Position numbers and translations under genes: made by a program
The notes under the pieces: generated by a model
Told to the model about the DNA's origin: nothing
Seen by the model: the letters and a program-made list of their open reading frames with translations, nothing else
Database searches by the model: none
Source: an uncultured Bacteroidales bacterium
Lineage (GTDB): Bacteria; Bacteroidota; Bacteroidia; Bacteroidales; P3
DNA length: 64,000 nucleotides
Assembly: GCA_900318665.1 (NCBI GenBank)
Contig: ONLQ01000003.1
Span: 12,387-76,386, forward strand
Direction of reading: 5' to 3'
Shown: in pieces, positions 22,007 to 33,423 of the stretch
Position numbering within the stretch: the first letter of the stretch is position 1
Layout of the letters: every line of letters begins with the position of its first letter

Positions 22007-23998
22007 TTATTTCTTATCCGTTACAGGGTAAGAGATGCGGACGTGGTAGATACTCAGCATCTTGCTTTTCAGCATACTGCGGATAGACGAAATGTCGTGG
22101 AACGTTAGCGGGCACTGTCCCATCTGTCCCTGCTCTATCTTGCCGAGCACTATGCTGTCCACCAGTTTGTCTATATTCTCCTTGGTGGGCTCTTTCAGAC
22201 TCTTGCAAGCGGCCTCCACCGAGTCCACAATCATCACCACCGCCGTCTCGCGCGAATAAGGACGCGGACCAGGATAGCGGAACACCGAGTCGTCGAACTT
22301 CTCGTCTGGATGTGCCTCTTTGTATTTGGCATAGAAATAGCCCGTATAGGTTGTGCCGTGGTGAGTGCGGATAAAATCGCATATCTCGGCAGGCAGGTGA
22401 TATTTATGAGCCAAATCGATGCCGTCGTGCACATGCTGCGTTATGATACGCGCGCTTTCGGTGTAGGGCAACTCGCTGTGGGGGTTGTATCCAGAGTTCT
22501 GATTTTCGGTAAAATAGATAGGCGCGTTAATCTTGCCTATGTCGTGATAGAGGCCGCCGACCTTTGCCAGCAGTGCGTTGCCGCCAATCTCGTTGACAAG
22601 GTCCTCGCTGATGTTTGCCACCTGCATACAATGCTGGAAAGTGCCAGGGGCTTTGCGTGACAGTTCGCGCAGAGCGGGCGTGTTGGTATTGGCTATCTCC
22701 ATCAGCGTCAGATTGGTAGTAACGTGGAACACCTTCTCGTATATATATATGAGAGGGTAGGCCAGAAGGGTTAGCACGGCATTGAGGAAGAACACCACAT
22801 AGCGGTCGGGGCGAAGGTTGTGCAGGTGGGTGTCCTGCCACAGTATTCCGCAGGTGTAGATGAGCGAATAGGTCAGAAAGACAACGAGACACGCCACAAA
22901 GAACTGACTCCTGCGCTCAAACTCGCGAACGGTGATGATTGACATCATTCCGGCGGTGAGTTGATAGAAGATAAACTCAAAACTGTCGGGCACCATGTGA
23001 CCGAGTATCACAATGGTAGATATATGTACATAGAGAGCCGTGCGCATATCGAAAATGACGTGCATCAGTATAGGTCCGATACATAGCGGCACCACGAGCA
23101 CCCATGCCGGACGCACATGGATTACAAAGGCCGTCATGGCAGCCATCAGCACTATGGTTGTCAAAATCATAAGCACGCTGTGCATATCTTCCAGCAGGCC
23201 GTGATTGCTGATATTAAGGAACATGAATAGGGCCAAAAATGCAATGGCGCACAGCATGAAACGCCCGAAATAGTGGGCCACAGGATTGAACTGCTTGACA
23301 AAGCGCTTGTCGTTGTCGGCCTCGAGCGACGCTATAATGCGAGCCTTCTCGTCGGTAATATACTCGCCTTTCGACACTATCAGTTCGCCCGTAAGCACCG
23401 TCTGCGACGAATACTGCAACTGCGAAAGGCGCGAGTCGAGTTCCATCTGCGTGCGGTTGGCATCAAAACAGACGCTGGGAACCAGCACGCTGTCGCGCAG
23501 AAAAGCATTGGCAATGCTGGAAGGCTCAACAAACTCCGACGGCGAGTGTTCCGAACCTACATTTCCTTGCAAAATCACTATGGTGTGGTCGGCAATATCG
23601 GGATAGTCTGGCGACAGTTCTATATATCCGCGCTGATAAATGCTGTCCATGCTTTTGCGCATACGCTGCATCTCGACATACGACAAAGTCCGCCTATATT
23701 GCGCAAGGCGGCTCATTGCCGTGGCGTGCGCCGCACTGTCAATCTGATAGTAAAGCGTGCTTTGCGCCTTGGCCAAAGCCATCTCCTGGTTCAGTTCGCT
23801 CTCGCTCTTTATGATGGGGAAGTCGTGAGGCGCATAGAGGTCGTTGTCTTTCCAAAAACTCCCTGGCGAGTAGTCGTAATGCTCGCCTTGCTGTTTCTGC
23901 GGGAACATTATCATTATTACAACTATGGCAATGATAATGGCAAGAAACTTATTGATAAGTGGGAGCCGCCTTACGGCATTAGCGAAAAACTCTTTCAT
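22007..23998 (-). CDS. 7TM-receptor HDIG-domain phosphohydrolase (PgpH-like)
   Basis: 663 aa. An extracellular N-terminal domain is followed by 7 TM helices and the HD domain LYHDIGK...HHG. Confidence 0.85.
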   Translation of the reverse strand: MKEFFANAVRRLPLINKFLAIIIAIVVIMIMFPQKQQGEHYDYSPGSFWKDNDLYAPHDFPIIKSESELNQEMALAKAQSTLYYQIDSAAHATAMSRLAQYRRTLSYVEMQRMRKSMDSIYQRGYIELSPDYPDIADHTIVILQGNVGSEHSPSEFVEPSSIANAFLRDSVLVPSVCFDANRTQMELDSRLSQLQYSSQTVLTGELIVSKGEYITDEKARIIASLEADNDKRFVKQFNPVAHYFGRFMLCAIAFLALFMFLNISNHGLLEDMHSVLMILTTIVLMAAMTAFVIHVRPAWVLVVPLCIGPILMHVIFDMRTALYVHISTIVILGHMVPDSFEFIFYQLTAGMMSIITVREFERRSQFFVACLVVFLTYSLIYTCGILWQDTHLHNLRPDRYVVFFLNAVLTLLAYPLIYIYEKVFHVTTNLTLMEIANTNTPALRELSRKAPGTFQHCMQVANISEDLVNEIGGNALLAKVGGLYHDIGKINAPIYFTENQNSGYNPHSELPYTESARIITQHVHDGIDLAHKYHLPAEICDFIRTHHGTTYTGYFYAKYKEAHPDEKFDDSVFRYPGPRPYSRETAVVMIVDSVEAACKSLKEPTKENIDKLVDSIVLGKIEQGQMGQCPLTFHDISSIRSMLKSKMLSIYHVRISYPVTDKK

Positions 23999-24032
23999 GT
24001 GCAGGTCTATTCGTATTAAGCAATAAAGATTG

Positions 24033-24040
24033 CAAAGTTA
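24033..24040 (-). promoter_or_regulatory. -7 box (TAACTTTG on the minus strand) for the HD gene
   Basis: The complement of caaagtta, 35 nt upstream of the ATG at 23998. Confidence 0.45.
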
Positions 24041-24518
24041 CACAAAATCCAACAAATTCACACAACCAGACAAAAAACGACTTAATCCTCGAACAATATT
24101 CTTAATGGATTTTAGCATAACATTGTTCCCAAAAAACTTGTTCTGCTTTTTTTCAAAGACTTAATGATAACCGATAGAAAAGGCAATAATATACAAGTAA
24201 TCCAGTCATAAAAAAGGTCTTTCATGTTTTTTGATTAGTTTCTCAGAAAAAAAGTAAATTTGCAAACGCTTACGCGCACGATGTAAGACATACAAGAAAA
24301 GCATTGTTATTAAGTCCTTACTTGTAAATTCGGTTGAACTCCGTGAAGTATGCTCCATGTATAAACATAATGTTTTTTTATACCTTTAAAGGTTACAAAA
24401 AGTAAATCGATGAGAGGCACTTAAGTCTCATTTTTTTATAGATGACCCTGCCCGTGGGAGGTATGAAAATACAAAATGACTAACGGGAAGAGTGTCAAAG
24501 ACGAATAAAATAAGATTT

Positions 24519-25406
24519 ATGGAAAATATAAAAAACATAACAGACATCCTTTTCGCAAAGATTTCTGAACTAATAGATCAATCGCGAGGCTTCGTAGTTA
24601 ATGCTGTCAACGTGGCGGAGGTCAGAACTCGCTTTGAGGTGGGACGCTATATTTTTGAGGATGAGCAGCGGGGCGAACGTGCCACATACGGCCAACGGGT
24701 GTTGAAAAAACTCTCTGCCCGACTGATGGAACATTATGGCAACGATTGGAGTTATGATACACTTGTAAGATGTCGGAAATTCTATCAAGCATACGAACAT
24801 GCAGAAATTGTGGCAATGGCGTTGCCACAATTAGAAGAAACAACACAATCACCAGAAAGCAAGAAACTTACAAATTGGGGCAACGGTGTTGCCACAATTC
24901 AGATGCCCCGTTTCACACTCTCATGGTCGCACTACCTAATCTTGATGCGAATCGAGAATAAAGAAGCCCGCAGTTTCTATGAGATTGAGGCGACCCAGTA
25001 ACAGTGGTCTGTCAAACAACTGAAGCGTCAGGTGGGTAGCAGCCTCTATGAGCGATTGGCATTGAGCCGCGACAAAGACGAAGTGATGCGGCTGGCCAGG
25101 GAAGGGCAAACCGTCGAAAAGCCGTCCGACATCATCAAGAACCCCATCACGCTGGAGTTCCTTGGCCTCAAGCCCAATGCCGCCTATACAGAGTCGAGGT
25201 TGGAGAACGCCATCATTGGCCGCATGCAGCAGTTCCTGTTGGAACTGGGAAAAGGATTCCTGTTCGAGGCCCGACAGAAACGCTTCACCTTCGAGGAACG
25301 TAACTTCTATGTCGATTTGGTGTTTATGTTCCATGGATTTGATACGACAGAGCATGAGGATAATGACAAAGTACGCCAAAACAAAGCATACAGGTGCGCT
25401 GCCTGA
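24519..25406 (+). pseudogene. DUF1016 / YhcG-type PD-(D/E)XK nuclease, disrupted
   Basis: ORFs 24492-25001 and 25032-25406 are in the same frame and are separated only by a TAA at 24999-25001 (...YEIEATQ*QWSVKQLKRQVGSSLYERLALS...). Family similarity ends after FYVDLVF (~25326), and the E.K part of the nuclease motif is missing. Confidence 0.7.
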
Positions 25407-25473
25407 ATGGTGTAAGCCTTTTATCAATCTGTTCAGAATGCGTTGTAAAAAGTTTGAGAACGCACAATAAATC

Positions 25474-25530
25474 TCCTCACATCGCGTTATCAACCTGTAA
25501 TCACTAGGGATATTGTCGCCAATGTGAGGA
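25474..25530. repeat. 9-bp perfect inverted repeat (tcctcacat / atgtgagga) with a 39-nt spacer
   Basis: Read directly from the sequence. It lies in the gap between the DUF1016 remnant and the HU-like gene, 36 nt upstream of the ATG at 25566. Confidence 0.6.
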
Positions 25531-25565
25531 CAAATATACAGTAGAACACGCAATAATGGAATAAC

Positions 25566-26000
25566 ATGGCCTATTATCGTAAACGCAAATCAAGCCTCAC
25601 GGGTTTGTGGACGCCAGTCGCTGTTTCGACTCAGATGGTTGATGAAGAGTATCTGGCACGTCTTATCGGGCAACGCTCAACTGTACACGCTGCCGATATT
25701 GCTGCCGTCCTTACCGCTTTGCCTGAGGTTATAAGCGAGGCATTGGCTGATGGATTCAGCGTACAGTTGGGCAAACTTGGCTCATTCAATTTGGTCGTAG
25801 AATGTGAAAAGACGGGCGTGGCCACTTCTGCCGAGGTCTCGCCAAAGCAGATAACCAACGTCAAGGTTCAATTCCGTCCACCTCGCAAAATGCTCTGGAT
25901 GGGTGATGGGCGCAAGCGTCAGAACATGCTCCTCAATCGCCCGTACGAGTGGATTGAGTTGCCGCCCCGTCCAGGCAGCAAGGCGAGTGAGGAGGACTAA
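25566..26000 (+). CDS. HU-family (Bacteroidales HU-HIG type) DNA-binding protein
   Basis: 144 aa. The pattern ...LIGQRSTVHAADIAAVLTALPEVISEALADGFSVQLGKLGSF.L... is an HU-fold core, followed by a basic, proline-rich tail. Confidence 0.65.
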   Translation: MAYYRKRKSSLTGLWTPVAVSTQMVDEEYLARLIGQRSTVHAADIAAVLTALPEVISEALADGFSVQLGKLGSFNLVVECEKTGVATSAEVSPKQITNVKVQFRPPRKMLWMGDGRKRQNMLLNRPYEWIELPPRPGSKASEED

Positions 26001-26013
26001 AAAATAAAACGAC

Positions 26014-27090
26014 ATGAACACTCTGCCACAATCAAGAACGCTACCCATAGAACCGCTGACGCGCATCTTCAAGAACACGTCCGCGACGTATAAGTTCTAT
26101 TGGTTTATGGGCATCCTAGACCTATATGTCAAGAAGGACATGAAACGGATGAGCATTTGGGACCTTATGGTTGAGATGACTGCCAATGCTTGGTATCCAG
26201 TTAGCTATTTCCGGCTTTCGTTTGGCAAAAGCGACTCGCTGCGCGATGCTATTATCTCGCTGCAAGAGGTGAACAACCTTCCGATGAATATTAACCCTAA
26301 CGAGTTACGCCGTTGGCTGCACAACCACAAGAACGACACGATGGTGCGTCGCACGCTCGATTTCCTGCCCAAGAATGTGCCCTATTGGTTCCTGCGTCCG
26401 TGGATTGATGTGGCCGACACCAAAGAGATAATGCATCGTTCGCAGTCGTTGGAAAACAGCTGTCTCTACAAACTGACCAAAGAGGATGACACCATCTGGG
26501 TCGAACTGAACAGCAGGTGGTTGACCTACCTCAAAGAGAACTACGTCATTCTAAAAGACTTCGCCTATTGGAATCTCTCGTCGTTCCTGCAAGTACGTAA
26601 TCCCAATGTGCCTAACATTGCCACCAAGTTAGTGAAAGTGGAGAGTCGGCAAGCATTGACCAAACAGCGTAACCTGTGGGACTTCGTACTTGAACACTCA
26701 CAGCCGATGAACTGCATCTACACTGGCAATACGTTGGAAGTCGGCAATTACGACCTTGATCATTTTATCCCGTGGAGCTTCGTGTCGCACAACCTTTTGT
26801 GGAACCTTATCCCTGCCGACAGCAGTATCAACTCGTCAAAAAGCGACCGACTGCCAGACCTCGACCGCTATCTGCTACCTTACGCACAAACCCACCAAAT
26901 GGCCGTTCGCACATGCATTGAGGGCAACTATCGGAACAAGGAACTGCTCGATGATTACATATCGCTCGGCTGTACACCGCAGGAACTATCGCAAATGAGC
27001 AAAACAAACCTTGTGAACTGCTTCAAGCGAACCTTCGTACCAATGAGCCAGATTGCACAAAACATGGGATTTGAAGTATGGAGAAACTAA
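26014..27090 (+). CDS. HNH endonuclease with a ~235-aa uncharacterised N-terminal region
   Basis: 358 aa. The C-terminal CIYTGNTLEVGNYDLDHFIPWSFVSHNLLWNLIPADSSINSSKSDRLP is an HNH (beta-beta-alpha-Me) motif. I cannot assign the N-terminus (FKNTSATYKFYWFMGILDL...). Confidence 0.8.
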   Translation: MNTLPQSRTLPIEPLTRIFKNTSATYKFYWFMGILDLYVKKDMKRMSIWDLMVEMTANAWYPVSYFRLSFGKSDSLRDAIISLQEVNNLPMNINPNELRRWLHNHKNDTMVRRTLDFLPKNVPYWFLRPWIDVADTKEIMHRSQSLENSCLYKLTKEDDTIWVELNSRWLTYLKENYVILKDFAYWNLSSFLQVRNPNVPNIATKLVKVESRQALTKQRNLWDFVLEHSQPMNCIYTGNTLEVGNYDLDHFIPWSFVSHNLLWNLIPADSSINSSKSDRLPDLDRYLLPYAQTHQMAVRTCIEGNYRNKELLDDYISLGCTPQELSQMSKTNLVNCFKRTFVPMSQIAQNMGFEVWRN

Positions 27091-27959
27091 CGCACATAGA
27101 ACCCGAGAAGATAAACCGTCCATATCTGACGGCCATCAAGCGGACAGACCTTTCTGTGCCCACACGATACCTTATGCAACACGGATTGTTGAGAGGTAAG
27201 ATATTGGATTTTGGATGCGGTTTCGGTTTTGATACTGATGAACTATGTAGGCAGGGGTACAATGTCATTGGCTATGACTATTATTATCGCCCAGATTTCC
27301 CCATTGGAAAGTTTGATACCATTTTGTGTAACTATGTGTTGAATGTCCTTGAACCCTATGCACAAGCAGAGGTGTTGATGAATGTTGCTAATTTGCTATC
27401 GCCCAAAGGTACTGCTTTTTTTGCCGTGCGTAGAGATTTGACAGAAGAAGGTTTTCGGCTTCACGCCATCCACAAGCAATACACCTACCAATGCAACGTC
27501 ATACTTCCTTATAAAAGCATAGTTTCCAACGCAAGCTACGAACTATATCAATATAATCACTTCAACAAACTGCCTCGTGTTGAAGGCGAGAAATGTCCAT
27601 TCTGCAAACTCTCACGCCGCGTTGAAATAATATGTGAGACTACAACCTGTGTGGCTTTCTACGATGGTTACCCTGTTTCTCCCGGACATGCGCTCATAAT
27701 ACCCAAAAGACATGTCGCATCATATCGAGACCTAAGTCGTCAAGAGCGTTATGATATGGATGAAATAAGGGAATATGTGATGCGTAAGATAGATGAACGA
27801 TTTCAACCAGATGGTTACAATGTCGGAATTAATATCAACAAAGCGGCCGGCCAATCCGTTTTCCATTGTCACATGCACATTATTCCTAGATATAAAGGTG
27901 ATGTACCCAACCCCAAGGGCGGTGTACGTGGCGTTATTCCTCAAAAACAGAAATATTAA
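27078..27959 (+). CDS. fusion protein: class I SAM-dependent methyltransferase domain + HIT (histidine triad) domain
   Basis: 293 aa. ILDFGCGFGFD is SAM motif I, followed by GYD and ILCNYVLNVLEP. The C-terminal KCPFCKL...YDGYPVSPGHALIIPKRHV...HCHMHIIPR contains HxHxHxx. The ATG overlaps the HNH stop region by 13 nt. Confidence 0.8.
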   Translation: MEKLTHIEPEKINRPYLTAIKRTDLSVPTRYLMQHGLLRGKILDFGCGFGFDTDELCRQGYNVIGYDYYYRPDFPIGKFDTILCNYVLNVLEPYAQAEVLMNVANLLSPKGTAFFAVRRDLTEEGFRLHAIHKQYTYQCNVILPYKSIVSNASYELYQYNHFNKLPRVEGEKCPFCKLSRRVEIICETTTCVAFYDGYPVSPGHALIIPKRHVASYRDLSRQERYDMDEIREYVMRKIDERFQPDGYNVGININKAAGQSVFHCHMHIIPRYKGDVPNPKGGVRGVIPQKQKY

Positions 27960-28038
27960 TATTTACAACAATATGGATCCAGAATACGAAAACATAACAA
28001 TCATCTTAAGCATTGAGAAACATAAATAATAAAATAGA

Positions 28039-29106
28039 ATGGAGAAAAAATATTTAAAACATAGTTTAAGTAAATTGACGGATTCCGAATACAAAGAGGC
28101 TGTTCTTAGCGCCAGTAGTATCTTGGATACGGATGATGGAGAAGACTGGTGCAAGCTGATTCTTAGAATTGCAGACGAGATAAAAAGAAGAAACGGGCTG
28201 GAAGAAGCCATAAAATACCTTGATGCCAGACGATCCGATTATGAAAGAGTGTTCAGTAATTTATTTGACAAAAGTGCTGAGATACTCAAGAAGACTTGTT
28301 ATTTCAATCTGGAAAACAACACAATTCATTCTTATGATAAAGCAAAAGAAAATATAGTTAGATATATATATAATGCTCTTGCCCAGATAGATTACAAGGC
28401 CACATATGATAAAATGCCTTACTACAGTTTTAGGTGCTTTTCGGAATACTCTTTAAACGATGTAAAGAACCAGAAATTAACCCTATCACATCCTCGTGAG
28501 TTTAATGACCCTTTGGATACTTTACTTGTTTGGTGGATGGTATCTGAAATCGAGAGCCCTGGTAGTTCTGACATTAACAAGAAATACACTCTCTTGTTGA
28601 AGAAAGTGTCTGAAAGTATTAAAATACGGTGTTTAGTCGCAGGTAAGAAAGGCAAAGAAACCATTCCAGTGGAAGATCTTTCAAGCCTTATGTGGGCACA
28701 CTATGCAAACAGTCATAAAGGTTTTTGTGTAGAATATGAGTTTGATAGATCTTTTACCTCTAGAGACCCATCTAAAGGCAATATTGTCTTGCTAAATGGA
28801 ATCAACTATACTAGCAAACTTGAAACACATGGCGAACCTTCCATCAAAGAAGCTCTGTTTAACAAAGGAGAGTTTTGGAATTACGAAAATGAGGTTAGAT
28901 TGGTAATGTTTAATGCAGAAATAGAAGAAGATTTCCCGTCACTATCTTGCGAAGGAAGAATTAAAGCCATATATTTGGGGGTTAAGTGTACAGATGAAAA
29001 TAGAAGAAAGATGGAAAGAGCTATTGGCCATAAGGATATACCCTTGTACCAAATGAAAATTGATGAGAACAATCTTATGCATTTTAAAAAACAACAAATA
29101 GGATAA
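28039..29106 (+). CDS. DUF2971 domain protein with an N-terminal helical extension
   Basis: 355 aa. LSHPREFNDPLD, LMWAHYANSHKGFCVEYEF, FWNYENEVRLV and IKAIYLGVKC follow the conserved DUF2971 order. The sequence is very AT-rich. Confidence 0.75.
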   Translation: MEKKYLKHSLSKLTDSEYKEAVLSASSILDTDDGEDWCKLILRIADEIKRRNGLEEAIKYLDARRSDYERVFSNLFDKSAEILKKTCYFNLENNTIHSYDKAKENIVRYIYNALAQIDYKATYDKMPYYSFRCFSEYSLNDVKNQKLTLSHPREFNDPLDTLLVWWMVSEIESPGSSDINKKYTLLLKKVSESIKIRCLVAGKKGKETIPVEDLSSLMWAHYANSHKGFCVEYEFDRSFTSRDPSKGNIVLLNGINYTSKLETHGEPSIKEALFNKGEFWNYENEVRLVMFNAEIEEDFPSLSCEGRIKAIYLGVKCTDENRRKMERAIGHKDIPLYQMKIDENNLMHFKKQQIG

Positions 29107-29110
29107 TACC

Positions 29111-31378
29111 ATGAATACTAATAGAATAACACAAGAAGAATTATTATCTTCTGTAATTCAATTCGAGAAGAATAAGAACAATGCAGAATTTGTCAGTCGA
29201 TTGCATGACGACAACTATTTATACAAATTCAAAGGTTCAAGAAAAGAGAAGATAGTTATTGTCATGCTAGATTCTCTGGATTTCATTGACCGGATGATTC
29301 ACCAACTGGAAATAGCCAAAGATTATATAGTTATTAATACGAACTATACTGATATCATTGAAGTGTTTACTACAGCCATCCTTCCTGAGTCTAAGATATC
29401 GGAACTGGAGAAGCCATTAGCGACAGAAGACCTGTCTCTTTCAGTTAATGATCTGATAAGTATAGAAGAGCGAAATGAATTCGCTTCATTGTTTATAACG
29501 GAGAACATGAGTATGAGTGAATCCGAAATTGCCCCTGCGGTTTATGACTATCTTGCTATGAGCAATGAATCATCCGATATTAAGAACCTATTTTTCTATG
29601 CTTTACTGCTAATGGATATATATCGACATCAACCGGTTGAAGAAAGATCTTTTATCGATGATAGTAGTAAAAAATATAATAAGAGTGAGTTGGAGATACA
29701 GCGTGCTATTAAAAAGATGAGAAGTGATGGAAAAATAACTCCATTACAAAAAGGTAATGTATTCAGTTTGAGTGATAGTGAGCAACGCGCTATCGATAAA
29801 TCGATAAAAGACTCCCGTGCTACGGAGCAGCAATTCCTTATGAAATATAATGAGATTTTGGACAAATATCAGGTGTCTTGGGGTGAGGATATTCTTGAAA
29901 AACTAAAGAACGAGTATCTTCTAAAATATAATGGATTGTATGGTGACGAACAAACAAATGGAACAGATAAGAATGGAGATAATACTAGTTTTGAACAATT
30001 CCTGACCGAAAAATTAGGAAACATTTCGCAAACATTTCTTGAGGAACTATATGGGTTGTGTGACAATACGGACTACCTTGATCAATATGCTCTAAATCAA
30101 TCATTTTTCAACCTTTTTTGTTCTCCAAAGTATGAAGAATATTTGAGTAAAAAAAATATTTATATTTACCTTGACACTCCTGTGATTTCAAATTACATTT
30201 GTTCGAAGAGCGAATATCCAAATGATTACAATTTAGAATTAAATAATCCAGACTATCAGAACGCTTTGGATCTCTTTGGTTATCAGGAAGAGAATGATGA
30301 CAAAATAAGTTTTGTTGTCCCTCATGATTATCTCCTGGAAACAGTCGGTGAATTAAAAAAAGCCTTACAGCTATCTTGGTTCGACCAAATACAGGATGCC
30401 CCGATAAAAATGCAAACATCCAATGTTTTCTACAATTTTTATTGTTCAATTAGGGATGAAAAGAAGATTCGCGAGGAAGATATTTCTGGATTTAGTTTTG
30501 AACAATTTGTCAAAACATTAGGTTTTGGAGAAGTCAATCCAGATGCAAATACTTTTATGAAGAAAAACGTCACTAATATGAGGTATTTCCTTAAAAAAAT
30601 GGGAGTTGAAACACTAGATATTGTGGACGGTTATTTTGATGGCTTTGATAAGGTGAAAGTTAGTTATGAATGGGAGTTACAGGAAAGAGGTCGAGACAAA
30701 ACTAATCTTGCTATTAATGCCGATGTTCGTCAGGCTTTTTATATTACAAAAGAAGCCCTTGAAAATGGTTTAGAGAATACTGAATATTATCTGGTAAGTT
30801 GGGATAACACGTTGTTCAAACTACGCGACATTGTCAAAGATGAATTGGAAATAGCTGGACGCACTTATGGGATATATAAACCAGGAGAATTGGCAGACAA
30901 ACTTGCTTTTCGTAATTTTCGGATTAGTAAGGAGAACGTGAAAAGCGAAGTTTTTGCTTATGCAAACAATAGTTTCAATATGAGTGATAAAATCCGAAGC
31001 CTTTTTGATAACGTGTTAACCCCGTATTTTGCATCGTCTAAAAACAAAAACAGTAAACTCGTTTCCTCTCTGTTGACAATGGAACATTCCCAAATTGATG
31101 GTGGGGTAGAAAAAGAAACGTCTTCAAGAAGTGACAAGACTATGTTTGAAGAAACATTTATCTCAATTGTCATGTCTTTGCCAAAGTATAATTGTACAAA
31201 ACAAAATCTGCGTGATTTCTTGGTTGATGAGAAAAATAATGATTTCATTATCACTACTTTTAAAGAAGCATTCCAGGAAAAAGGGGCGGGCAAGAGCATT
31301 GACATTGCAGACAGATTCTGCAAAGAAATAAAAGACTATGTAAATGTAGTGACTGATGATATTAAATTGTCATTGTGA
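29111..31378 (+). CDS. large hypothetical protein (755 aa), possible PIN-like core in the middle
   Basis: A long uninterrupted ORF 4 nt after the DUF2971 stop, with the same low G+C. I see no Walker A, HEPN or HNH motif. For the acidic-residue pattern, see the finding at 30152-30835. Confidence 0.75.
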   Translation: MNTNRITQEELLSSVIQFEKNKNNAEFVSRLHDDNYLYKFKGSRKEKIVIVMLDSLDFIDRMIHQLEIAKDYIVINTNYTDIIEVFTTAILPESKISELEKPLATEDLSLSVNDLISIEERNEFASLFITENMSMSESEIAPAVYDYLAMSNESSDIKNLFFYALLLMDIYRHQPVEERSFIDDSSKKYNKSELEIQRAIKKMRSDGKITPLQKGNVFSLSDSEQRAIDKSIKDSRATEQQFLMKYNEILDKYQVSWGEDILEKLKNEYLLKYNGLYGDEQTNGTDKNGDNTSFEQFLTEKLGNISQTFLEELYGLCDNTDYLDQYALNQSFFNLFCSPKYEEYLSKKNIYIYLDTPVISNYICSKSEYPNDYNLELNNPDYQNALDLFGYQEENDDKISFVVPHDYLLETVGELKKALQLSWFDQIQDAPIKMQTSNVFYNFYCSIRDEKKIREEDISGFSFEQFVKTLGFGEVNPDANTFMKKNVTNMRYFLKKMGVETLDIVDGYFDGFDKVKVSYEWELQERGRDKTNLAINADVRQAFYITKEALENGLENTEYYLVSWDNTLFKLRDIVKDELEIAGRTYGIYKPGELADKLAFRNFRISKENVKSEVFAYANNSFNMSDKIRSLFDNVLTPYFASSKNKNSKLVSSLLTMEHSQIDGGVEKETSSRSDKTMFEETFISIVMSLPKYNCTKQNLRDFLVDEKNNDFIITTFKEAFQEKGAGKSIDIADRFCKEIKDYVNVVTDDIKLSL

Positions 31379-31520
31379 ACATGTATCATGCCGGGGACAC
31401 AGGGACAGGCACCTGTCCCACACCCGCGAGAGCAAGGGGATAAGTGAAACTGAAGATAAATGATAAAAAATGCGGATGAATGATGTGTAACATTTCCGTT
31501 TTTTGGACATTATTAGAGAT

Positions 31521-31554
31521 TTCCCCACCCCGCCACCAGAACAGATGAGAAATG
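31521..31554 (+). repeat. repeat segment A, copy 1 (ttccccaccccgccaccagaacagatgagaaatg)
   Basis: Near-identical to 33120-33153. In copy 2 it is contiguous with segment B, whereas here it lies ~330 nt away. Confidence 0.8.
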
Positions 31555-31690
31555 TGTAACATAAAGAATTGAAAATTGGGAGTTCCGGGAGTCGAGCGCA
31601 AAGCCAAACTTGCTTGAGCTCTGCCGAGATGCAGGAGCGTTGACGAAGTCAAAATTGAAATTGATGACTGATGGAATATTGACTAAACCA

Positions 31691-31712
31691 CTCTGCACTG
31701 AAAGTGCAGAGG
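31691..31712 (+). repeat. GAAA-tetraloop hairpin, copy 1 (ctctgcact-gaaa-agtgcagag)
   Basis: A 9-bp perfect stem followed by gtttta. The core ctgcactgaaagtgcag is repeated at 31841-31858. Confidence 0.7.
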
Positions 31713-31840
31713 TTTTATAAATGATGCGGAATGAAATTCCTTATTATCTACAAACAAACTTACGAAAAAAACAAACCGAAACATAAACTTAAAATCAAAC
31801 CCCAAGTAACACTATAGACGTTTTTAGAAACTAAAAGTTG

Positions 31841-31858
31841 CTGCACTGAAAGTGCAGG
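31841..31858 (+). repeat. GAAA-tetraloop hairpin, copy 2 (ctgcact-gaaa-agtgcag)
   Basis: The same 17-nt core as copy 1, in direct orientation 150 nt downstream. Confidence 0.7.
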
Positions 31859-31880
31859 GATTTAACCGTAAAATATTAAA

Positions 31881-32038
31881 AAATGAAAATTGAGAATTGA
31901 AAAAAAACATCAGCTGACGCTCTGCAAACCGGTGATTCGGAATATGTAAGACTTGTCTCACTAATTCCAGGTGTGTGTTAAAAGGCAACAGAGGAAAATA
32001 GGCCACTATAACAGGTGAAAAAAGAAAAGTGAGAATAC
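31881..32038 (+). repeat. repeat segment B, copy 1 (~150-nt module upstream of rhuM)
   Basis: aaatgaaaattgagaattgaaaaaaa..catc.gctga.gct.tgcaaacc...gacttgtctcact.att.caggtgtgt... aligns by eye at roughly 85% identity with 33148-33287. Confidence 0.75.
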
Positions 32039-32069
32039 AAAAAAATCTGAGTATAATAATATATTGAGT

Positions 32070-33086
32070 ATGAATAAAAATACAAGCATACAATTGGCAT
32101 CGAATGACGAAATGCTGATTTACCAGTCGGAAGATGGGACTATCAAGGTGGATGTGCTGTTTCAAGACGAGACCGTCTGGTTGACAATCGACAATATGTG
32201 TATGCTGTTCGGGAAGGCCCGCTCAACAATCAATGAACATATTCTGAATGTCTTCAGTGAAGGAGAACTGGAAGAATCGAAGAGTGTGAGAAAAATCGGT
32301 ATTTCCGATTTTTCCACCAAACCTACTAATTTCTACAATCTTGACGTCATCATTTCAGTAGGCTATCGCGTGAAGTCGCACCAAGGTACTTTGTTCCGTA
32401 TCTGGGCCACACAACGTCTGCACGAATATATCATCAAGGGTGTGGCGTTGAACGACGAGCGTTTCAAGAAGGGCAACTCGATGAACTACTTCAAGGAATT
32501 GCTGGAACGCATCCGTGAGATACGCCTGTCGGAACGGGTCTTCTACCAACAGATTAAAGACATCTACAAGACCAGTATTGACTATGACCCTGCTGACGAG
32601 ATGACGCTGCAGTTCTTCAAAGAGGTGCAGAACAAACTGTTGTGGGCCGTAAGCGGGCAGACAGCTGCAGAACTGATATACTACCGGGCCAACGCCTCGT
32701 TGCCAATGATGGGCCTGACCTCAACGGAAAATACCGGCAAGGTGCTGAAATCGGACGTGAGTATAGGAAAAAACTATCTGAATGAGGACGAGATGAAGGT
32801 CTTGAAACTCATCGTCGAACAGTTTCTGGCCTTTGCCGAAGCCCAAGCCGCGTCCCACACCCCTATGTATATGCGTGACTGGATGGAATATTTGAAGATG
32901 GTGCTCACGATGAACCGCAAGTCTATCCTAGCCGATGCCGGACGAATCTCGCACCATATGGCCATTGAAAAAGCCGAATCGGAGTACGACAAATACAAGA
33001 ATACCCAACGCCAGATAGAGCATCTGGAAAGCATCAAGGAACTGGAAGCCGACATCTATCGATTGAAGAAAGATAATGAATCTTGA
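32070..33086 (+). CDS. rhuM: RhuM family (Virulence_RhuM) protein
   Basis: LIYQSEDGTIKVDVLFQDETVWLTIDNMCMLFGKARSTINEHILNVF...YNLDVIISVGYRVKSHQGTLFRIWATQRL is a strong RhuM signature. I chose the ATG at 32070 over the TTG at 32064. Confidence 0.85.
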   Translation: MNKNTSIQLASNDEMLIYQSEDGTIKVDVLFQDETVWLTIDNMCMLFGKARSTINEHILNVFSEGELEESKSVRKIGISDFSTKPTNFYNLDVIISVGYRVKSHQGTLFRIWATQRLHEYIIKGVALNDERFKKGNSMNYFKELLERIREIRLSERVFYQQIKDIYKTSIDYDPADEMTLQFFKEVQNKLLWAVSGQTAAELIYYRANASLPMMGLTSTENTGKVLKSDVSIGKNYLNEDEMKVLKLIVEQFLAFAEAQAASHTPMYMRDWMEYLKMVLTMNRKSILADAGRISHHMAIEKAESEYDKYKNTQRQIEHLESIKELEADIYRLKKDNES

Positions 33087-33119
33087 CAATGGATGCATAA
33101 CACATGTTGTTCCCCACCC

Positions 33120-33287
33120 CGCCACCAGAACAGGTGAAAAATGAAAATTGAGAATTGAAAAAAAGCATCGACTGATGCTTTGCAAACCGACGATTTAGAA
33201 TAGGTACGACTTGTCTCACTGATTTCAGGTGTGTAAAAAAAGCAAGAGGGGAAAGTGGGCCACCAGAATATGTGAGGAATATAACTT
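33120..33287 (+). repeat. repeat segments A+B, copy 2 (contiguous)
   Basis: It starts 34 nt after the rhuM stop and ends at a TAACTTTG box (33282-33289) that precedes the DUF1016 stub. Confidence 0.75.
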
Positions 33288-33303
33288 TGCAAAATATACT
33301 AAC

Positions 33304-33423
33304 ATGAAAGTGCGAAATAATATTCAGCCATCTAATATCTCAAGTTTCATTGCGGATATCAAGCAAATTGTCAATACTGGCAAAATGTCAGCCTCTTCGG
33401 CAGTGAATGCGACGGGTTTATAA
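33304..33423 (+). pseudogene. 39-codon N-terminal stub of a second DUF1016/YhcG-type gene
   Basis: MKVRNNIQPSNISSFIADIKQIVNTGKMSASSAVNATGL* resembles the N-terminus of the gene at 24519 (ITDILFAKISELIDQSRGFVVNAVN). It then stops, and a -7 box lies 15 nt upstream. Confidence 0.45.

Follow-up and report, generated by a model that had tools for sequence, protein, structure and literature searches.

A low-G+C gene pair of rumen and gut Bacteroidales: a DUF2971 (Aristaios-like) protein with an undescribed partner as a candidate anti-phage module

We describe two adjacent genes, A and B, in a 64,000-nt stretch of DNA (contig ONLQ01000003.1 of an uncultured Bacteroidales bacterium), which is called the window in the following. 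Comparative sequence analysis indicates that A and B are a conserved, co-evolving and mobile two-gene cassette that was acquired horizontally. It presents a known effector family, DUF2971, in an obligate two-gene form with a partner from an undescribed superfamily. With about equal weight for and against, we propose that the cassette is a self-contained, horizontally mobile anti-phage module of the abortive-infection type, in which A would be the effector and B a sensor or regulator. The observations behind this proposal are the operon arrangement, the co-occurrence and co-divergence of both genes, the homology of A to the defence protein Aristaios, the anatomy of B, and a link between the loss of a nuclease motif in B relatives and the presence of an upstream gene.

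The gene pair and its base composition

The pair consists of the following elements.

28039..29106, forward strand: gene A, DUF2971/Aristaios-like predicted ADP-ribosyltransferase, 355 aa, ATG start (Pfam, PADLOC, PHROG, BLASTP)
29107..29110, forward strand: A-B spacer, TACC (read from the sequence)
29111..31378, forward strand: gene B, 755-aa partner, ATG start, member of an uncharacterised superfamily (profile search)

Gene A ends with a TAA stop codon (29104-29106), and gene B starts with its ATG at 29111, which leaves a gap of 4 nt. This close spacing suggests that both genes form one operon. The list of open reading frames and the sequence itself agree with the initial annotation of this DNA in the two reading frames, their coordinates and the gap. 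The same annotation had reported a G+C content far below that of the host and of two neighbouring genes, which is borne out by the values: 0.353 for gene A and 0.340 for gene B, compared with 0.522 in the window outside 24000-33400 and with 0.484 and 0.425 in the neighbouring HNH and MTase-HIT genes, respectively, which are on the same strand. A low G+C content is found for the pair in every host, ranging from 0.33 to 0.41, while the remainder of each locus has 0.38-0.47.

Pairing, co-divergence and host range

The check for co-occurring homologues, which the initial annotation had proposed, gave a clear outcome. B is directly preceded by an A homologue in 26/26 related loci from about a dozen different neighbourhoods. 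When B is the starting point, every locus (L001-L018) carries an A homologue of about 358 aa directly upstream and on the same strand; when relatives of A with 36-39% identity are the starting point, a B homologue of 751-765 aa is located directly downstream. Across all related pairs, the spacing between both genes varies from -8 to +15 nt. None of the relatives of gene A down to 36% identity occurs without B. Further out the pairing stops, as a DUF2971 protein of 30% identity is found without B.

Across 18 pairs, the pairwise identities among the A proteins are strongly correlated with those among the B proteins (r 0.98; Mantel test, 0/5000). Thus, A and B diverged together, down to approximately 25% identity. 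The HNH, MTase-HIT and rhuM genes next to the pair in the window do not travel with it, and since no window neighbour does so, we regard A + B as an independent cassette. The joint import postulated earlier is in good agreement with a conserved, co-diverging and mobile cassette of low G+C in every host.

All nine species genomes with a B relative are metagenome-assembled genomes of rumen or gut Bacteroidales. The window itself is represented a second time, since positions 18075-39106 are 100% identical to a 96.5-kb rumen metagenome scaffold (ENA ERZ28614905), and one of the collected loci (L031) is the same DNA. In 2.9 million viral contigs (IMG/VR) and 50,697 phage genomes, zero B relatives were found. 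For gene A, phage-plasmids yielded distant matches only. Members of the wider B superfamily occur in rumen and gut Bacteroidales and, at the other end of the range, on an enterobacterial IncF plasmid.

Gene A is related to Aristaios and looks intact

Gene A matches Pfam DUF2971 (PF11185) with 27.1 bits, the gathering threshold being 22, over residues 218-288. It further matches four models of PDC-S31, the candidate name under which PADLOC lists the family (best E 9.6e-33), and phrog_1762 (E 6e-26). Aristaios is a validated single-gene anti-phage system with an abortive-infection-like phenotype (PMC11381338, PMC13064643), and the view expressed earlier that DUF2971 lacks any experimentally defined activity is outdated in this respect (PMC11381338). 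Its AlphaFold model resembles an ADP-ribosyltransferase, the enzyme activity being predicted (PMC11381338, PMC13064643), and it is reported to block phage transcription (PMC13064643). In the prediction of a bioinformatic survey, DUF2971 belongs to the DarT/AbiGi-like ADP-ribosyltransferases and is marked by an ExE motif and a conserved Tyr (PMC12522546). The ADP-ribosyltransferase fold assigned to A is taken from this survey and from the Aristaios work (PMC12522546, PMC11381338).

For a direct comparison we used the 316-aa DUF2971 coding sequence recovered from the lactococcal plasmid pUCCL641D. BLASTP aligns A and Aristaios over 226 residues at 27% identity (E 2e-19), and the alignment begins at residue 142 of A. 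The motifs NDP, MWAHYAN.HKGFCV, FWNYENE.R and YLG.KC are common to both proteins. The subfamily to which A belongs comprises 104 members, most of them 355-375 aa long and aligned over 89-100% of the query. The following parts of A can be distinguished, all on the forward strand.

28039..28413: N-terminal extension, residues 1-125, outside the DUF2971 core; typical of the B-paired subfamily and not in the Aristaios alignment
28426..28434: candidate motif I, S130-F131-R132, kept in 100-104/104 subfamily members
28699..28704: motif II, H221-Y222, with the conserved Tyr of the family (motif according to PMC12522546), 104/104
28885..28893: motif III, E283-N-E285, the ADP-ribosyltransferase ExE; both Glu 104/104 and kept in the Aristaios alignment

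The motifs noted previously, FNDP (155-158), MWAHYA..GFC (218-230) and W..E.E.R (280-287), are present and invariant in the 104-member subfamily. Taken residue by residue, the invariant or near-invariant positions are S130-F131-R132, H151, N156-D157-P158, D160 and R197 in the first half, and W219, H221-Y222, H226, K276, E283, E285 and R287 in the second. Gene A of the window keeps every one of these conserved residues, and therefore the predicted enzyme looks intact.

Gene B defines an undescribed superfamily

Gene B has zero matches in Pfam, NCBIfam, PHROGs and PADLOC. A word-indexed search with B returned 16 close clusters of 38-92% identity, all of them 749-755 aa long. The exhaustive profile search is far more productive: it found at least 242 representatives at 50% identity, 93 of which score below E 1e-30, and nearly all have a length of 740-845 aa. 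A profile search of the close B family against the PDB returned nothing. When 64 diverse members were scanned against Pfam, a sub-threshold match to Mrr_cat was the only recurrent one, next to scattered winged-helix matches. The PADLOC scan of the same 64 members yielded a single match, PDC-S60, caused by a different N-terminal domain in protein P0253, one of the N-terminal variants of the superfamily. Neither Argonaute, APAZ, STAND nor another known sensor domain was found in B by the Pfam and PADLOC scans. The earlier statement that B is devoid of ATPase, HEPN and HNH motifs holds, as a Walker A motif is lacking and no such family was matched in the Pfam, PADLOC, NCBIfam and PHROG scans.

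The AlphaFold (AF2) model of full-length B has a mean predicted local distance difference test (pLDDT) score of 74.6 and consists of five parts. Foldseek searches of the whole chain against the PDB gave non-significant and globally poor alignments only. The five parts and the codons of four acidic residues are as follows, on the forward strand.

29111..29494: N-domain, residues 1-128, homologue of the Mrr/SMEK-like domain of relatives, without the catalytic residues (AF2 order alpha-beta-beta-beta-alpha-beta; hhalign)
29570..29776: winged helix-turn-helix, residues ~154-222 (AF2, three helices and a beta hairpin)
Residues 222-346: long helices (AF2)
30149..30910: alpha/beta domain, residues ~347-600 (invariance, domain model)
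30173, 30338, 30722 and 30803: codons of D355, E410, D538 and D565, respectively, the acidic tetrad of the alpha/beta domain and a candidate metal-binding, PIN/FEN-like site
30944..31375: C-terminal helical domain, residues ~612-755 (AF2 secondary structure)

A winged-helix-like segment had been suspected in B from the beginning, and three lines of evidence now point to it. Besides the AF2 topology, the profile of 64 diverse members matches F-93 of SSV1 (1tbx, E 0.0026) and F93 of STIV (2co5, E 0.026), and Foldseek aligns the segment with TtgV over 94 residues (prob 0.98). We conclude that B carries a winged helix, with modest statistical support.

In the central domain, D355, E410, D538 and D565 do not vary in 112-114 of the 114 full-length representatives, which share at most 50% identity, and the same is true of N438 and P591. 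T356 directly follows D355, and the first strand ends with an LDT motif. A model of the domain alone (B residues 336-605, 131-sequence alignment) reached a pLDDT of 93.1 and a predicted TM-score (pTM) of 0.90. It shows five beta strands, inferred to be parallel, which alternate with helices, and the acidic residues lie at strand ends and helix starts.

The initial annotation had considered a PIN-like acidic tetrad possible in B. The tetrad holds as a pattern of conservation, but the PIN-like label was confirmed neither by sequence nor by fold search. No PIN family appeared in Pfam scans of the 64 B members or in PDB profile searches. Foldseek of the domain model against the PDB and BFVD returned nothing at E <= 0.001, the best match having E 8e-3 and a TM-score below 0.35. 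Matches to Exo1, XRN, FEN and XPG recur, but only at E 0.08-1. We did not file the domain as PIN because it lacks a significant match in spite of a model with pLDDT 93; it could have a new fold or represent a PIN/FEN relative with extensive elaborations. Three other assignments of the acidic site were considered and discarded. For a DEDD/RNase-H-type exonuclease, the distance of 55 residues between D355 and E410 and the alternation of strands with helices do not fit; a HAD phosphatase would have DxDxT, where B has a single Asp (LDT); and the E...DxD pattern of Toprim is missing.

Loss of the nuclease motif goes along with an upstream gene

The members of the B superfamily differ in their N-terminal part. 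The commonest of several variants, present in 61/114 full-length representatives, carries the motif DG(P)xDGGxD ... IQxTVQK. In Pfam, 16/30 of these motif-bearing N-domains match Mrr_cat (best E 8e-4) and 9/30 match SMEK_N (best E 2.7e-4), all below threshold, and a PDB profile search with them returned nothing. SMEK is a nuclease domain and an effector of short Argonaute systems (PMC10810196). The N-domain of the window-type B proteins is homologous to the motif-bearing one (hhalign prob 98.4%, E 4e-15, 118 columns). In the window lineage, however, the catalytic DGxxDGGxD and QxTVQK positions are replaced.

We compared the state of this motif with the gene content upstream of B. The comparison covers distinct B proteins with at least 700 nt of upstream sequence, with 66 motif-type loci drawn from metagenomes.

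Motif intact, no tightly coupled upstream gene and no DUF2971 gene in the locus: 25/25
Motif absent, tightly coupled upstream DUF2971 gene: 19/27
Motif absent, tightly coupled upstream gene whose 221-255-aa product has one or two strongly hydrophobic segments: 6/27
Motif absent, no tightly coupled upstream gene: 2/27, one frameshifted and one with a different ~200-aa N-terminal domain

The gene for the hydrophobic protein usually overlaps B by 4 nt, and its product has no Pfam match (L071-L073, L076-L078, L080, L082). The variant with the ~200-aa N-terminal domain (P0277, L027-L029) is encoded between two integrases, near a cluster of type I restriction-modification, Abi_C and DUF1016 genes. 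A stand-alone, motif-bearing B relative of 753 aa was observed on an IncFII plasmid of Raoultella terrigena (L099, NZ_CP062917.1, 204691-206952). It is located in the leading region of the plasmid amid ssb, anti-restriction and methylase genes, in opposite orientation to them.

As motif loss is matched by an upstream gene, the pattern has the appearance of an effector replacement and suggests A as effector and B as sensor or regulator. This differs from the layout seen by the initial annotation, a small unknown protein at the side of a large putative nuclease. For the same reason, the domain with the D-E-D-D site is probably not sufficient as effector and is more likely concerned with the binding or processing of a nucleic-acid cue.

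Genomic neighbourhoods of the pair

Defence genes are found within a few kb of many A + B loci. The neighbours vary while the pair stays.

L001: KwaB
L003: beside an integrase, AAA_15+RloB, HD-CE/HATPase and SLFN_AlbA_2; the same island in L013, L014 and L017
L004-6: HEPN_LA2681, AbiH and SIR2_2
L007-9: MmeI-type restriction-modification system, FRG and integrases
L019-21: OLD-TOPRIM+UvrD pair (Gabija-like), embedded in a capsule locus
L025-26: RVT_1 and two TIR_2 genes

The island of L003, L013, L014 and L017, which thus recurs in several Bacteroidales genomes, reads, in full, AAA_15+RloB, a 1130-aa HD-CE/HATPase protein, A + B, an uncharacterised protein of ~1255 aa with nothing but a weak AAA match, and SLFN_AlbA_2. 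In the window, PADLOC places the pair between a PDC-S02 gene (the broken DUF1016/YhcG) and a PDC-S05 gene (rhuM). The proximity to defence genes that had been expected for the homologues is thus seen for many copies. A sizeable minority, by contrast, resides in capsule or glycan loci, and this comes close to what the initial annotation had named as evidence against its idea, namely homologues mainly in prophage structural or metabolic contexts.

Proposed mode of action

We suggest the following course of events. The ancestor would have been a one-gene system, made up of a sensor or regulator core and a built-in Mrr/SMEK-like nuclease. The core would comprise the winged helix, the helical linker, the alpha/beta domain with the D-E-D-D site and the helical tail. 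After the nuclease site was lost, the killing role may have moved to a separate upstream gene, coding for an ADP-ribosyltransferase in the window and for a membrane protein elsewhere. A would then be an Aristaios/DarT-like ADP-ribosyltransferase effector that uses NAD+ to modify nucleic acid or an essential protein, and its activity would stop the gene expression of the phage and probably of the host; we infer both the chemistry and the target. B presumably holds A inactive until an infection is detected. The dead nuclease domain of B and the N-terminal extra region of A are candidate docking surfaces, and the D-E-D-D domain together with the winged helix may bind, sense or process a nucleic-acid cue.

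A generalisation to the whole superfamily is tempting, and we hold it to be possible, a little short of an even chance. Under this assumption, the B proteins would be undescribed modular immune sensors with an interchangeable killing module: a built-in Mrr/SMEK-like nuclease, a DUF2971 gene, a gene for a small membrane protein, or N-terminal domains of other kinds. Detection of the invader would fall to the winged helix and the D-E-D-D alpha/beta domain.

Several points weigh against an anti-phage module with A as effector. The nuclease motif was one of two search patterns, and the counts of motif state and upstream gene given above are therefore subject to an ascertainment bias. Capsule or glycan loci account for about one third of the A + B contexts (L004-6, L019-24 and several GTDB loci), and the commonest neighbour families of the stand-alone B relatives are of the capsule and glycosyltransferase type, both in raw counts. 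Taken over the pair, the stand-alone B relatives and an unpaired DUF2971 relative, such surroundings also include L016, L100-L102 and neighbours of L032-L076. The DUF2971 protein of 30% identity that lacks B is encoded inside a glycosyltransferase operon, where it overlaps a GT4 gene by 4 nt. Finally, the role of effector could belong to the D-E-D-D site, whose conservation is universal.

Alternative explanations

The last point leads to the alternative which survives best, and which we consider unlikely all the same. Here, B would be the real effector, a PIN/FEN-like nuclease acting via D-E-D-D, and A would serve as an accessory sensor or regulator, e.g., by ADP-ribosylating B or marking the target. 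The invariance of D355/E410/D538/D565 in 112-114/114 diverged representatives, the location of the acidic residues where strands end and helices begin in a confident alpha/beta model, and the weak but recurrent fold matches to Exo1, XRN, XPG and flap endonucleases are what one would expect of such an enzyme. If the D-E-D-D domain sufficed, however, the loss of the N-terminal motif need not pair with a new upstream gene, as it does in 25/27 cases. Neither Pfam, PDB sequence nor Foldseek searches gave a significant PIN match, and the A homologue Aristaios defends on its own (PMC11381338).

Only slightly behind, and likewise improbable in our judgement, is a toxin-antitoxin or addiction cassette, with A as toxin and B as antitoxin, which would mainly stabilise variable regions rather than act against phages. 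A tight two-gene operon with one member akin to DarT-like toxins, the strict co-divergence of A and B, and the frequent location of the pair within highly variable capsule loci and islands would all suit this explanation. An antitoxin of 755 aa with five domains and a conserved, catalytic-looking site would be unusual, however, and stand-alone B relatives exist without a toxin partner. Moreover, the characterised protein most closely related to A acts in defence. A toxin-antitoxin role and one in abortive infection can also coexist.

Much less probable is a tie of A + B to surface-glycan loci, for instance as regulators or modifiers of capsule synthesis, in place of a role in conflict with mobile elements. 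Glycosyltransferase, epimerase and Wzy genes are repeatedly found beside the pair as well as beside stand-alone B relatives, and the overlap of the DUF2971 relative with the GT4 gene points the same way. On the other hand, the window and many other loci have no adjacent glycan genes, and a nuclease-type N-domain next to a winged helix is unexpected in glycan enzymes. One and the same capsule locus also houses the Gabija-like OLD+UvrD defence pair, and low G+C together with a patchy distribution suit a mobile cassette.

Very improbable is a larger system in which A + B would depend on three genes further upstream, HU-HIG, HNH and MTase-HIT. All five share one strand and are separated by short distances, but the three upstream genes stand next to the pair in 0/25 other loci, L031 aside, and G+C falls stepwise from 0.48 to 0.43 and 0.35. 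We rejected a joint system with HNH and MTase-HIT since these neighbours are not conserved.

Comparison with known systems

With Aristaios, A shares the Pfam family DUF2971, several motifs and the predicted ADP-ribosyltransferase activity. Aristaios, however, is a single gene, flanked by insertion sequences and without a B-like gene (pUCCL641D), while A has an N-terminal extra region of ~125 aa and was found together with B in 26/26 loci. The hosts differ as well, being Lactococcus for Aristaios and Bacteroidales for A.

DarTG resembles the pair as a two-gene operon with a toxin of the ADP-ribosyltransferase type, this activity being predicted in case of A. DUF2971 was placed closest to the DarT, AbiGi and Tox-ART-HYD1 toxin type (PMC12522546). 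DarG, in contrast, is a macrodomain antitoxin, whereas B has no Macro match in Pfam and a five-domain architecture. DNA as a possible target of A would follow solely from similarity at the level of the literature.

Short prokaryotic Argonaute/APAZ systems have SMEK, DUF4365 or HNH nucleases as partners (PMC10810196). They are similar to the B superfamily in combining a constant core with alternative effector modules, and the N-domain of B relatives weakly matches SMEK_N and Mrr_cat. B differs in the lack of Argonaute, APAZ and STAND domains, the said matches are sub-threshold, and the likeness is one of architectural logic only. To PIN domains (VapC, FEN/Exo1/XRN), the central domain of B is similar in its strands alternating with helices, in LDT at the end of the first strand and in four acidic residues with PIN-like spacing. 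With ~250 residues it is about twice as large as a canonical PIN domain, and it has no significant match in sequence or structure.

In agreement with the earlier view that the system is undescribed, the two-gene form of A + B is absent from PADLOC v2, and a partner like B is described in none of the six open-access papers found to mention DUF2971.

Candidate defence systems are numerous, and the swapping of effectors is a familiar theme. Experimentally characterised defence systems are scarce for rumen and gut Bacteroidales. If our proposal holds true, an Aristaios/DUF2971 effector can be under the control of a dedicated partner, which would provide a handle on its silencing and switching-on. 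Furthermore, a widespread superfamily without a Pfam, NCBIfam, PHROG or PADLOC model would join the bacterial immune sensors, and the loss of the nuclease motif with gain of an upstream gene would be a natural experiment that tells the probable weapon from the sensor. The strict pairing, the co-divergence and the correlation of motif and partner amount to a clear and testable hypothesis.

Other features of the island

The island is bounded by a 7TM-HD receptor gene (22007-23998, reverse strand) and by anmK/alaS (from 33475). Its genes are, in order, the broken DUF1016/YhcG, HU-HIG, HNH_4, MTase::HIT, A, B and rhuM. The DUF1016/YhcG (PDC-S02) gene at 24492-25406 is a pseudogene: an in-frame TAA interrupts it at 24999-25001, and its C-terminal part is truncated. 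Within its N-terminal domain, a 28-nt palindrome occurs twice (24805-24832 and 24872-24899). A possible separate module follows, comprising HU-HIG (25566-26000), a Cas9-like HNH_4 protein (26014-27090) and the MTase::HIT fusion (27078-27959). The fusion gene overlaps the HNH gene by 13 nt. Its HIT half matches PADLOC ThsC, and its MTase half matches the dnd-related TIGR04096 below the cut-off.

An Rfam scan of the island gave zero RNA family matches, and thus nothing points to an RNA antitoxin. A sigma-70 promoter scan produced matches at the level of shuffled sequence, where it has to be kept in mind that Bacteroidota promoters differ from this type.

A G+C-rich hairpin is located just past the stop of gene B, at ~31391-31420. 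Further downstream, rhuM (32064-33086) lies between direct repeats: 31521-31545 and 31877-32030 recur at 33110-33290 with 85-94% identity. Because these repeats bracket rhuM, they suggest that it was inserted or duplicated as a cassette. The repeat copy 3' of gene B holds an extra segment of ~330 nt (31546-31876), in which the hairpin GCACTGAAAGTGCAG occurs twice (31695 and 31843); the first copy is followed by a T-run and is terminator-like.

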